A DNA stretch of 64,000 nt from Promethearchaeota archaeon (lineage in GTDB: Archaea > Asgardarchaeota > Lokiarchaeia > Sigyniarchaeales > SOKP01), in NCBI GenBank assembly GCA_048940805.1, contig JBHLOF010000007.1, positions 287-64,286 of the forward strand, written 5' to 3'. Below, piece after piece: positions 18,861-23,105 of the stretch. Under the pieces are notes generated by a model that was given only the letters and a program-made list of their open reading frames with translations, was not told the DNA's origin and did not search any database. Every line of letters begins with the position of its first letter. Position 1 is the first letter of the stretch. The position numbers and the translations under genes are program-made.

Positions 18861-19733
18861 ATGGTTGATACGACCACTATAGTCTCTGAAATACAAGAAA
18901 AATATAAAATTATAGGTAGAACTGAAGAACTTAGACAAATTGTTTTAGCTCATTCGGTGGGAAAAAATATATTACTAGAAGGAAATGTTGGTGTTGGAAA
19001 AACCACTTTAGCTAAAGCTATTGCTGAATACTATGGCTCTAATAGTTCTAATTTTTATAGGGTAGATTGCAGTGAAGAATTATTACCTCACAATTTAGTG
19101 GGTTATTTTGAGCCCCCTCTAGTAATCGCAAAAGGTTATAATGAAGAGTCCTACAAGCATGGACCACTAGCTATGGCAATGCTCGAAGGAGGGTGCTTAT
19201 TTATAAATGAAATCAATAGAATGCCAGAAAACACACAAAATTCTTTATTAAGTGCTCTAGATGAAGGTATACTTGAAATTCCAAAATTGAAAACAATTAA
19301 AGCTCATAAGGATTTCTTTGTTGTTGCAACCCAAAATCCTGTTGCTCATGTTGGAGTAACTGTATTAGGTGAGGCCTTAATCGATAGATTTATCTGGATT
19401 AATTTAGATTATCAAAATCCTGATGAAGAAATTAAAATAATCAAACAGGAAGCAAATATAACCTCTGATAAAATTTCGAAAATATCTCAAAATATTATTC
19501 AGGCCACTAGAGAGACAATCTCAATCCGAAGAGGAAGTTCAATTAGAGGTGCAATTGACTTAGCTACATTAATAAATCAATATGATAATTCTGATAGTTC
19601 AAGCAACTGGGTTGAAGCTGCGGTAATGGCATTACATAATAAAATCGAATTAGAAGATGGACTCACTCAATCAAAAAAAGAGATTATTACGAATATTGTT
19701 TTAGCTGTTTTAAATAAATCGGATTTTCAATAG
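18861..19733 (+). CDS. MoxR-family AAA+ ATPase
   Basis: GNVGVGKT, FINEINR, ATQNP, EALIDRF, SIRG. Confidence 0.9.
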   Translation: MVDTTTIVSEIQEKYKIIGRTEELRQIVLAHSVGKNILLEGNVGVGKTTLAKAIAEYYGSNSSNFYRVDCSEELLPHNLVGYFEPPLVIAKGYNEESYKHGPLAMAMLEGGCLFINEINRMPENTQNSLLSALDEGILEIPKLKTIKAHKDFFVVATQNPVAHVGVTVLGEALIDRFIWINLDYQNPDEEIKIIKQEANITSDKISKISQNIIQATRETISIRRGSSIRGAIDLATLINQYDNSDSSSNWVEAAVMALHNKIELEDGLTQSKKEIITNIVLAVLNKSDFQ

Positions 19734-20842
19734 TCGATGATTTCTCTGAGGGGGATTCCAAAGAGATTGAGAATAAACCGCACGTTAGACTTACTGAAAG
19801 TAGGCAAAATGAAGATGTTTTAGAGTACGAGATTGCTAGAAAAAAGAGAAAAAAACCTGATTATTACAAGCATCTTGCTAATACTCTAGATTACAAAACA
19901 ATTAAAAGATTAACCCAGTTAGCAATGGCTTCCGACAATTTAGACGCAGTTCTAGGGCTTATAAAGGCTAATGTTTATGCGGCAACGGATACTTTGGATA
20001 CTGAGGAGGGTGTAAAGTTCTTCACTGATAAGATTAAAGAAGCACCAGACTTTATGCCAGAAATTTACTTTTTTATTAGGCGTCCTATATCAGCAAGGTA
20101 CAAATCTATTTTTAGGCGCTTAGCCCGACAAAGTATATTAAAATTATCATTGAAGATAACTAGTAAGGGTATACGAGGTCAATTTAAAAGATCAATTCCC
20201 TATTACAAAATAGGAATGCCTGAGTTTAGTTTAGATGAAACAATCCAACATAATCCGTTAAAAATTTATGAGAAGAATATTAATTATAAGGATATCTTTG
20301 GAATTGTAAGAAAACGTCAAAAAAGAAAAATTGTGCTCATACTAGATACTAGCGGGAGTATGTATGGTCGTTTATTGTTGAATGCAGCCCTTACTACTTC
20401 AGTATTAGCTTATAATATGGAGAAGGAAGATTATGCTATAGTTTTATTTAACTCAGATGCAATGACCTTAAAAAAAATCAACGAAAGAACGTCAACTCTT
20501 AAAATTATTGATGACATCTTGGATTCAGAGGCAGTTGGATTTACGAATATACATCTAGGTCTTGAAAAAGGTTTAAAAGAATTAAATAAAACCAGAGAAG
20601 ACAGAAAAGGTCGTTTCGGAATTTTAATTTCGGATGGTGTATTTAATCGAGGAAAAGATCCAGTTGAAATCGCGAAACTCTTTCCAAAGTTGCATGTCAT
20701 TGGTATGCCCGCTGAAAACGATGCCGCCCAAGGGATTAGAACTTGTCAAGAGATAGCAACGGCAGGAAGAGGTAAATTCTATGCTGTTACTGATTATAAG
20801 GAAATACCTAGGGCTCTAATGGAATTATTAACACATGCCTAA
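19730..20842 (+). CDS. VWA-domain protein (MoxR partner); frame open from 19718, first ATG at 19925
   Basis: MIDAS DTSGS, FTN, ISDG; 65 further in-frame codons reach back to an ATA overlapping the moxR stop. Confidence 0.8.
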   Translation: MVDDFSEGDSKEIENKPHVRLTESRQNEDVLEYEIARKKRKKPDYYKHLANTLDYKTIKRLTQLAMASDNLDAVLGLIKANVYAATDTLDTEEGVKFFTDKIKEAPDFMPEIYFFIRRPISARYKSIFRRLARQSILKLSLKITSKGIRGQFKRSIPYYKIGMPEFSLDETIQHNPLKIYEKNINYKDIFGIVRKRQKRKIVLILDTSGSMYGRLLLNAALTTSVLAYNMEKEDYAIVLFNSDAMTLKKINERTSTLKIIDDILDSEAVGFTNIHLGLEKGLKELNKTREDRKGRFGILISDGVFNRGKDPVEIAKLFPKLHVIGMPAENDAAQGIRTCQEIATAGRGKFYAVTDYKEIPRALMELLTHA

Positions 20843-21799: not shown

Positions 21800-22375
21800 A
21801 TGGAAGACAGGAATTTTAAATATATTTTTAAAATTTGTTTGATTGGGAGTGGTGGCGTAGGAAAAACATGCATTGCCCGTAGATTGTGCTTTAACACTTT
21901 TAATGCAGACACTAAATTAACAGTTGGTATAGATTTTTATACCCATGACATCCCCATTGTAATTAAAGGAGAAGACACGTTTGCTCGCCTTTCAATTTGG
22001 GATTTTGGAGGGCAAGAACAGTTTAAAACTCTATTTGGATATTATATTTCAGGAGCAAGTGGTATATTTTTAGTTTTTGACTTATTGCAGATGGAATCAC
22101 TTGTAAAATTAGATTGGTGGTATGAAAATCTGGTTCAATTTAAATTGGAGGATCGCCCTAAAGTATTAATCGGTACAAAAATTGATTTAGCGCAAGGAGA
22201 AGATAAAAAGTTTAAGATCGCTGATTATATCATCACCCAATTCCTTCAGAACCACAATGAAAAAGATTTTATTAAAACCTCTTCGAAAGATAACACTAAT
22301 ATCCTCTATAGCTTTAAAGAAATAACAAGAAAAATAATGGATTATCATCATTTAGATTATGATAAATTTCCTTAA
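21800..22375 (+). CDS. Rab/Roc-like small GTPase
   Basis: G1 GSGGVGKT, G2 TVG, G3 WDFGGQ, G4 TKID, G5 SSK; no C-terminal Cys prenylation motif. Confidence 0.92.
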   Translation: MEDRNFKYIFKICLIGSGGVGKTCIARRLCFNTFNADTKLTVGIDFYTHDIPIVIKGEDTFARLSIWDFGGQEQFKTLFGYYISGASGIFLVFDLLQMESLVKLDWWYENLVQFKLEDRPKVLIGTKIDLAQGEDKKFKIADYIITQFLQNHNEKDFIKTSSKDNTNILYSFKEITRKIMDYHHLDYDKFP

Positions 22376-22463: not shown

Positions 22464-23105
22464 TTGATTTCACTAAAATACGGATTTTTCTCTTTAGAAT
22501 CTATGGAACATGTGAAAATTAATAAAAAAAGAATTTACATAGATAAACAAATCTTGTATTTAGAGCATTTCAATATACGAAATATAGGTGAAATTAAACG
22601 GATAAAAAAAATAACTGATTTATTGGAATTATATTTAGAGAAAAACAAGATTTCCAGAATAGAAAAATTAGATCATCTTAGTAAGTTAAAAAAACTTCAT
22701 TTAGAAACAAATTTAATATCAGAAATTAGTGGTTTGGATTCACTTATTAATCTCGAGGAATTAGAATTAAGTGGAAATCAAATCTCAATTATTACAAACT
22801 TAAAAAATTTAAAAAATTTAAAGGAATTACTCTTAAATGATAATAACATCAGTGATATCAAAGGTCTTAAGTATTTGACAAATCTTGAACATTTAGATTT
22901 AAGTAATAATCAAATTAAAGAGATTGATGGAATAGCAGATTTAGAAAACTTAAGATACTTAAATCTATCTGGTAACGAAATCAAATCTATAGAATCTTTA
23001 GTTCATTTAAAAAAATTAGAGAAATTAGATGTTGCAAATAATCCCATTATTGATTTTGAGATTATTAAACGGTTTGAAAACCTAAAAGAATTTAGAAAAG
23101 GATAA
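22464..23105 (+). CDS. Leucine-rich repeat protein (SDS22-like); real start may be ATG near 22504
   Basis: About 7 22-aa LxxLxLxxNxIxxI repeats. Confidence 0.9.
   Translation: MISLKYGFFSLESMEHVKINKKRIYIDKQILYLEHFNIRNIGEIKRIKKITDLLELYLEKNKISRIEKLDHLSKLKKLHLETNLISEISGLDSLINLEELELSGNQISIITNLKNLKNLKELLLNDNNISDIKGLKYLTNLEHLDLSNNQIKEIDGIADLENLRYLNLSGNEIKSIESLVHLKKLEKLDVANNPIIDFEIIKRFENLKEFRKG

Follow-up and report, generated by a model that had tools for sequence, protein, structure and literature searches.

The question raised by this locus is how a protein can be made from an open reading frame (ORF) that has no start codon of its own. The window, which is the whole 64,000-nucleotide (nt) stretch of DNA from a Promethearchaeota archaeon that was analysed here, contains the ORF of a MoxR-type AAA+ ATPase overlapped at its 3' end, in the -1 frame, by an ORF encoding a VWA domain. 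The ATPase ORF ends in TCG GAT TTT CAA TAG, and the heptamer G_GAT_TTT (19721-19727) within this end lies in slippery-site phase, with GAT 19722-24 and TTT 19725-27 as the zero-frame codons. The -1 frame is closed by a TAA at 19715-17, opens at 19718 and continues through an acidic linker-like stretch into the VWA gene, for 374 codons in all to 20842. Its first ATG, GTG or TTG is the ATG at 19925, 192 nt past the AAA stop, which leaves 69 codons without a start. These features had been claimed in an original prediction made from the letters of the window, which put the ATG about 200 nt downstream, and they are confirmed in the sequence. Based on comparison with related loci, it is very likely that the two ORFs are one recoded gene, expressed by programmed -1 ribosomal frameshifting.

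In the proposed mechanism, most ribosomes would finish at the TAG at 19731-33 and release a 290-residue MoxR-type ATPase of ~33 kDa. A fraction would slip one base back at G_GAU_UUU, where the tRNA-Phe on TTT could re-pair perfectly, moving from UUU to the overlapping UUU. In the -1 frame, the slipped ribosomes would then translate an acidic disordered linker, followed by a helical domain and a VWA domain bearing a metal ion-dependent adhesion site (MIDAS). The long product would be an AAA-linker-VWA protein of about 660 aa (~74 kDa), with the C-terminal 371 residues encoded from 19727 onward, and its architecture would resemble that of ChlD or midasin. Lacking its own start codon, the VWA part would be made only as a fusion. 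The stop one codon downstream and the conserved RNA element directly after the stop are the likely stimulators. We infer that ribosomes rather than RNA polymerase slip, and the efficiency of the shift, its stimulator and its role in the stoichiometry of the complex are likewise matters of inference; the earlier proposal that the two products set the stoichiometry of the ATPase ring is purely conjectural.

The arrangement is widespread. Close relatives of the VWA ORF are found in metagenome-assembled genomes of the Promethearchaeota/Promethearchaeia (Asgard archaea), with 64-87% identity over full-length matches. The VWA gene is present in 40 of 41 related genomes and, at E <= 1e-25, in 130 of the 161 genomes of the class, where the longest open frame does not exceed 466 aa; this class therefore has no fused gene. 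When a fused homologue was used as the query, matches were obtained in 253 of the 301 genomes of the phylum (E <= 1e-30). Both halves could be extracted and oriented at 89 loci, five of them fused in frame and 84 split, the split loci spanning about 20 families of the phylum. A 90th locus (L041), from which a contig end removes the ATPase, lies outside this set. Among the split loci, the VWA frame is offset by -1 in 80 and by +1 in four. In all 38 loci from four families of the order, the ATPase lies directly upstream and the VWA frame is at -1, with an overlap of 13-295 nt. The same layout, with the ATPase upstream and the VWA frame at -1, is found in 19 of 19 further loci of the class, a 20th being broken by a contig end.

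It is extremely improbable that the overlap is simply a broken gene or a homopolymer assembly error. The four loci with a +1 offset (L065, L066, L069 and L090) do lie at or near T6-T8 runs, adjoining TTT TTT CGN or a T8 run, and those few could be homopolymer errors or decay; they could also be +1 frameshift sites, where an Arg codon that may be slow follows a Phe codon. However, the -1 arrangement is common to 80 independent assemblies, and both halves of the gene are under purifying selection. Moreover, an indel error in the reads, which the original prediction had named as grounds for abandoning it, was sought in the contigs of three studies (four public DNA runs, one of them possibly the source of the window DNA), and no indel was found across 19500-20000.

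The sequence around the junction is conserved in a manner expected of a slip site. Of the 80 -1 loci, 78 have an in-phase T_TTN among the final three sense codons of the ATPase ORF, and in 77 the stop lies 0-1 codons past the slip codon. The heptamers vary by lineage: G_GAT_TTT is found in 38 loci, A_AAT_TTT in 13, T_TTT_TTC in 8, A_GAT_TTT in 7, T_TTT_TTA in 3, and G_GGT_TTT, C_CAT_TTT and T_GAT_TTT in 2 each, while C_CCT_TTT, C_CTT_TTT, T_CAT_TTT and A_AAT_TTC each occur at a single locus. The single locus with no T_TTN has A_AAC_CCT immediately before the stop. Canonical X_XXY_YYZ heptamers (A_AAT_TTT, T_TTT_TTC, T_TTT_TTA, G_GGT_TTT, C_CCT_TTT and A_AAT_TTC) are present near the stop in 28 of the 80 loci. 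In the alignment of the 38 loci of the window's family (A1), heptamer columns 2-7 are invariant, and the adjoining third positions have an entropy of ~1.1-1.3 bits. Codon usage provides further evidence. In a locus of 62% G+C, both ORFs elsewhere use TTT 2 times versus 21 for TTC and GAT 7 times versus 23 for GAC, yet the junction reads GAT TTT TTC; the junctions of other loci of 45-55% G+C likewise defy codon bias. Because GC-rich loci retain the T's of the junction despite their codon bias, selection appears to act on the bases themselves and not on the residues alone. Judged by these comparisons, the conserved core is U_UUU with a stop 0-1 codons later and not the first-position G. The expectation that the heptamer and the -1 phase would be conserved therefore holds for the phase and for T_TTN, and fails for the G at position 1, where part of the family has A or T.

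Sites of this kind are known from other systems. Pea enation mosaic virus 2 (PEMV2) has the site G_GAU_UUU with a stop 3 nt beyond it, and changing this stop to a sense codon was reported to cut frameshifting by 72% (PMC4737148). Full frameshifting in PEMV2 is described as requiring a stop at such a distance, and A_AAU_UUU and G_GGU_UUU with adjacent stops are reported from viruses related to PEMV2 (PMC4737148; PMC5009743). In Escherichia coli, U_UUU is listed as one of the three best tetramer motifs (PMC4066793). A canonical heptamer, T_TTA_AAT, also occurs in phase in the window at 19709-19715, 12 nt 5' of the proposed slip site; slippage there would be unproductive, because the -1-frame TAA at 19715-17 would be met at once.

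The T's of the junction could in principle be slippery for RNA polymerase as well, so that some transcripts would gain one U and encode the fusion in frame. The junction is always a T run, from T4 to T8, and fused and split loci differ in run length, with T7 in the fused genes and T6 in several -1 loci. In contrast, the window and most other loci have T4 only, whereas reviews place polymerase slippage at runs of about 8-9 or more (PMC3711429). The requirement that the run be in phase and the presence of a nearby stop are features of a ribosomal site. A look-up of sequencing runs listed no RNA run containing 19300-20200. Slippage of the polymerase is thus quite unlikely to be the explanation.

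The -1 phase could also reflect ordinary neighbouring genes, and the start codons are informative in this respect. One rival reading is that the VWA protein begins at the ATG at 19925 as a product of 305 aa, and that the 69 start-less codons are untranslated or a relic. This start is what an ORF finder returns, and many database entries of relatives start inside the extension. However, the first start is not conserved in position: counted from the AAA stop, it lies at -3 to +324 nt in relatives and at +15 to +324 nt within the window's family. At the base composition of the window (32% G+C), the chance of 69 stop-free codons is 0.003. The extension evolves as a coding sequence of the -1 frame: column entropies by codon position over the 38 loci are 0.51/0.33/1.11 between the AAA stop and the first ATG, compared with 0.54/0.18/1.20 in the zero frame 5' of the junction. 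Protein matches from relatives start at residues 1-3 of the -1 open frame. An AlphaFold model of the -1 frame, built with 46 sequences, has a predicted local distance difference test score (pLDDT) of 82.7 and a predicted template modelling score of 0.73. Residues 1-26 of the model have a pLDDT under 50 and are predicted to be disordered, which fits an acidic linker, while helices predicted at 29-39 and 45-52 and most of a third at 57-69 precede the first ATG (model residue 68). On this evidence, the start-less stretch belongs to the coding sequence of the -1 frame, and initiation at the ATG at 19925 is very unlikely indeed.

The other rival is translational coupling, in which termination at the TAG at 19731-33 would be followed by reinitiation on a non-canonical codon, either the ATA at 19730, as the original prediction had allowed, or an ATC or GTC just after it, to give a free VWA protein of ~370 aa. 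A -1 offset is what ATGA and TAATG overlaps give, and phase alone cannot separate coupling from frameshifting. The separation comes from the absence of start codons: no ATG, GTG or TTG lies from -12 to +30 nt around the stop in 64 of the 80 -1 loci. A canonical start does overlap the stop in eight of the 80, as ATGA in L091, TGATG in L067, GTG in L033 and TTGA in L040, L072, L076, L078 and L079; coupling could be ancestral or used in some lineages. The five overlapping TTG codons, however, arise by necessity where an ORF ends in TTT TGA. ATA or ATC adjoins the stop in all loci of the family to which the window belongs, but the near-cognate codon is not conserved, the ATA being GTA in 4 of the 38 family loci and TTA, CTA or GTA in other families. 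Coupling also leaves unaccounted for both the T_TTN and preceding third-position T that are kept against codon bias and the joint of fused orthologues at exactly this Phe. Overall, reinitiation at a non-canonical codon appears rather unlikely.

The natural fusions that the original prediction advised looking for do exist. In-frame fused genes of 717-732 aa are present at five loci (L060-L064), one of them broken by a contig end, and are restricted to one genus in another family of the phylum. At the joint these genes read xxT TTT TTT CGN, with a T7 run. A search of 1.84 billion representative proteins additionally returned many matches of 563-711 aa. All ten of the long database matches tested have an N-terminal AAA_5 domain, and nine of the ten have a VWA domain too (E <= 1e-5). 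One of the database proteins, P0046 (711 aa), shares 50% identity with the window ATPase over residues 7-289, ends this similarity at the same ..SDF, and runs on in frame to a VWA part with 29% identity. These alignments place the joint of the natural in-frame fusions at the Phe of the proposed slip. In L060, inspection by eye indicates that a -1 slip at the fused T7 run would hit a stop after a few codons. The genus with fused genes might still make the short ATPase by such a -1 slip, with the ratio of products inverted as in dnaX. An internal control is provided by a paralogous pair in the same genome (L039:1163-4598, minus strand), in which an AAA_5 ATPase of 313 aa is followed by an 829-aa VWA protein. 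The paralogous VWA protein has its own TTG start 4 nt past the ATPase stop, which is an ordinary two-gene layout.

The weak stem noted in the original prediction, TCTCT (19743-47) with AGAGA (19762-66), pairs in the minimum-free-energy fold as part of a larger hairpin. On its 5' side this hairpin consists of UC 19734-35, GAU 19736-38, GA 19739-40, UUUCUCU 19741-47 and GA 19748-49. It continues with a GGG/UCC stem and 4-nt loop (19750-59), AGAGAUU 19762-68, GA 19769-70 and GA 19771-72. Both arms are nearly invariant in the window's family, synonymous positions included. In one register 90.1% of cells pair, versus 31-59% with the partners slid, and in a second register 8 cells changed on both sides versus 2.5 +/- 1.3 in shuffles. 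A search of Rfam over 19600-19950 returned nothing better than E = 0.25.

The element also has some resemblance to a kink-turn, in which a canonical stem is followed by a 3-nt bulge and then by a second stem that begins with tandem G.A/A.G pairs. A box C/D-like pattern, UC-GAU-GA ... GA-GA, is present in the window and invariant in the 38 loci, with an outer stem of 2 bp only. A scan for the kink-turn order of GA, stem, bulge and GA found no match in the window; 20 of the 38 loci of its family match, in differing registers, and the motif is degenerate there. Outside this family, a kink-turn-like element (GA, a stem of >= 5 bp, a 3-nt bulge that is mostly GAU, and GA) occurs in 17 of 42 -1 loci, where it begins 0-8 nt past the stop. 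Control windows from the same loci (106,347 in all) match at a background rate of 1.5%; a binomial figure for this enrichment is overstated, because the loci are related. Between families the inner stem is wholly different while the GA and GAUGA parts are constant. In family f2, a long-loop stem has a 3-bp core that pairs in 14 of 14 loci, one pair being GC in 10, UA in 3 and CG in 1, with flanking pairs that hold in 6-7 of the 14. As a separate structure this stem was set aside and reinterpreted as the outer stem of the kink-turn-like motif, and five of the 14 f2 loci (L021, L025, L032, L042 and L043) pass the strict scan. By eye, the L086/L087 and L091 families have plain strong hairpins instead. 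The kink-turn is thus a partly supported lead and not a finding for this window. It is possible, although doubtful, that the element after the ATPase stop is a kink-turn recruiting L7Ae, or a protein of like fold, as a roadblock where the mRNA enters its channel, in what would be a protein-dependent -1 switch across the Asgard archaea. If so, the amount of fusion, and hence the make-up of the ATPase-VWA complex, would track free L7Ae. The grammar of a slip site plus a stop would then be that of plant-virus cassettes on eukaryotic ribosomes, with a conceptual parallel to recoding by the selenocysteine insertion sequence (SECIS) and SBP2.

Several points weigh against programmed frameshifting at this locus. 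The case is one of sequence comparison throughout. The window heptamer is non-canonical, the P-site tRNA-Asp would re-pair poorly on GGA, and seven loci have AGA where the window has GGA. The eight loci with a start overlapping the stop and the four of 84 split loci at +1 depart from the expected pattern. Phase itself does not discriminate, because ordinary ATGA and TAATG stop-start overlaps also give a -1 offset, and the locus counts overstate independence, because the loci are related. The hairpin is weak, with a free energy of -8.1 kcal/mol and z = +0.31 over 37 nt, 117 of 200 shuffles folding at least as well, and it shows little covariation. A 123-nt fold has z = +0.36, and z for individual loci ranges from -2.2 to +2.1; these values lend the hairpin no thermodynamic support. 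Set against these points are the conserved U_UUU core and adjacent stop, the start-less coding stretch and the fused orthologues, and programmed frameshifting remains the very probable explanation.

Features of the locus, with positions in the window
Feature	Position	Strand	Remark
AAA+ ORF, zero frame	18861..19733	+	MoxR-type AAA+ ATPase, 290 aa, proposed short product
Proposed slip site G_GAT_TTT	19721..19727	+	Conserved core T_TTT 19724-19727
Zero-frame stop TAG	19731..19733	+	One sense codon (CAA) beyond the slip site
-1 open frame, stop to stop	19718..20842	+	374 codons
Acidic linker, predicted disordered	19724..19807	+	Model residues 1-28
Conserved hairpin	19734..19772	+	Begins directly after the TAG, 6 nt past the heptamer
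Helical domain	19808..20161	+	Model residues 29-146, pLDDT about 87-95
First canonical start codon of the -1 frame, ATG	19925..19927	+	Model residue 68
VWA domain	20330..20809	+	MIDAS motif DxSxS at 20345-20359

Downstream of the pair, the window has a small Ras/Rab-like GTPase ORF (21800..22375) and then a leucine-rich-repeat ORF (22464..23105), both recognised by reading the translations by eye. Small-GTPase-like ORFs also lie 3' of the ATPase/VWA pair in several relatives (L007, L016 and L018). In two metagenome runs, the summed contig depth rises at 19704-19754 from ~25 to 320-670 over the junction. Many short contigs of other organisms match there, because these ~50 nt are strongly conserved. 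The VWA matches of two genomes from one genus (G064:C95:56486-57601 and G066:C68:936-2054) have one in-frame TGA each.

The domains of the two ORFs provide some indication of what the products may be. Pfam assigns the first ORF to AAA_3/AAA_5 and places a VWA domain at residues 205-364 of the second. The ATPase has the Walker A motif GNVGVGKT. The Walker B consensus ends in DE. In the window ATPase this motif (19185-19205) is FINEINR, so that hhhhNE stands where the canonical form would have hhhhDE. The form hhhhNE[ILV]NR was found in 67 of the 67 loci in which a regular expression reached Walker B, the expression having landed elsewhere or failed in the other 17 of 84. The same Asn is present in the fused proteins P0046 and P0031, and it may reflect altered nucleotide handling across the whole clade. 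The MIDAS motif DxSxS is invariant in the 46 aligned sequences. By sequence, the solved chains closest to the ATPase are MoxR (2r44, 61.6 bits) and NorQ (52.5 bits). A sequence search of solved structures with the VWA ORF gave no match at E <= 0.01. Its VWA domain has the generic VWA fold, and the VWA domain of NorD and the MIDAS domain of MDN1 are among the longest fold alignments.

Two more specific identities were considered and rejected. A search for CobN/ChlH (PF02514) gave no match in the window's genome (97.09% complete) but matched five of 14 control genomes. The ChlI-type family PF01078 matches ATPase residues 16-55 only, and AAA_3 and AAA_5 are the best families. With no CobN found and an ATPase of MoxR rather than ChlI type, a chelatase identity was rejected. 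Similarly, a special kinship with midasin was suggested by a match of E 4.5e-39 (137.6 bits). This score is a sum over six AAA modules, of which the best single one reaches 40.4 bits, below the 61.6 bits of bacterial MoxR.

Asgard archaea are the closest known relatives of eukaryotes. If the proposed mechanism is correct, this would be a case of archaeal recoding that is the rule, not the exception, across the whole Asgard phylum, and slip-site rules best known from viruses of eukaryotes would be at work in these organisms. Hundreds of pairs annotated as 'MoxR' and 'VWA' would each be one gene with two products, and in many of them the annotated VWA start would fall within the coding sequence. 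Furthermore, one ATPase protomer would carry the VWA adaptor by a covalent link, an arrangement shared with ChlD and midasin. Cellular programmed frameshifting in archaea is described as experimentally shown for one gene only, fucA1 (PMC8211752). No publication on such frameshifting of an Asgard MoxR-VWA pair, or on frameshifting by L7Ae and a kink-turn, was found in the portions of the literature consulted, subscription journals and supplementary files lying outside the scope of the search.

The precedents cited in the original prediction agree with the literature, which reports frameshift sites of the G_GA type from umbraviruses and dianthoviruses (PMC5009743; PMC4737148) and also describes chelatase genes that are frameshifted (PMC3711429; PMC9227772). 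Of the known systems, frameshifted chlD (fs-chlD) comes closest; its genes are reported to yield AAA-only and AAA-VWA products (PMC3711429). In fs-chlD, as proposed here, an AAA-only subunit and an AAA-linker-VWA subunit made by a -1 shift come from one locus (PMC3711429; PMC9227772; PMC5009743), and the long product predicted here does have the AAA-acidic linker-VWA architecture. The fs-chlD loci also resemble the present one in being annotated as a pair of neighbouring genes and in having relatives fused in frame, and some members are said to be archaeal. The two systems differ in their ATPases, which are of the ChlI type there and of the MoxR/AAA_5 type here, where the chelatase partner CobN/ChlH is also not found. 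They differ in their slip sites as well, A_AAA_AAR or poly-A being reported for fs-chlD and U_UUU with an adjacent stop being present here.

The cassettes of umbra-, diantho- and luteoviruses, such as PEMV2, red clover necrotic mosaic virus (RCNMV), barley yellow dwarf virus (BYDV) and groundnut rosette virus (GRV), are reported to share the heptamers G_GAU_UUU, A_AAU_UUU and G_GGU_UUU with the Asgard loci (PMC4737148). Also shared are a stop 0 or 3 nt past the site and a structured element, predicted in the case of the Asgard loci, beginning from the stop after a spacer of ~6 nt. The viral cassettes, however, are described as operating on eukaryotic ribosomes with a large bulged stem-loop and long-distance pairing, whereas this is a cellular archaeal gene with a small hairpin or kink-turn-like motif.

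In NorQ/NorD and CbbQ/CbbO, an AAA_3/AAA_5 ATPase adjoins a MIDAS-bearing VWA protein, as in this locus. Those are two proteins with their own starts, whereas the VWA part here is without a start and the Walker B motif has NE, not DE. Midasin (Rea1/MDN1) resembles the predicted fusion in that a single chain carries AAA_5 modules, an acidic linker and, at its C terminus, a MIDAS domain; it differs in its length of about 4,900 residues, with six AAA modules in tandem. Finally, fucA1 of Sulfolobus, also a cellular archaeal gene, is divided between a 0 and a -1 ORF like the present locus, and it is reported to be expressed by -1 frameshifting (PMC8211752). Its site is A_AAA_AAT, and it is described as split in a few strains only, with full-length relatives being usual, whereas in the Asgard archaea the split form is the usual one across the phylum.

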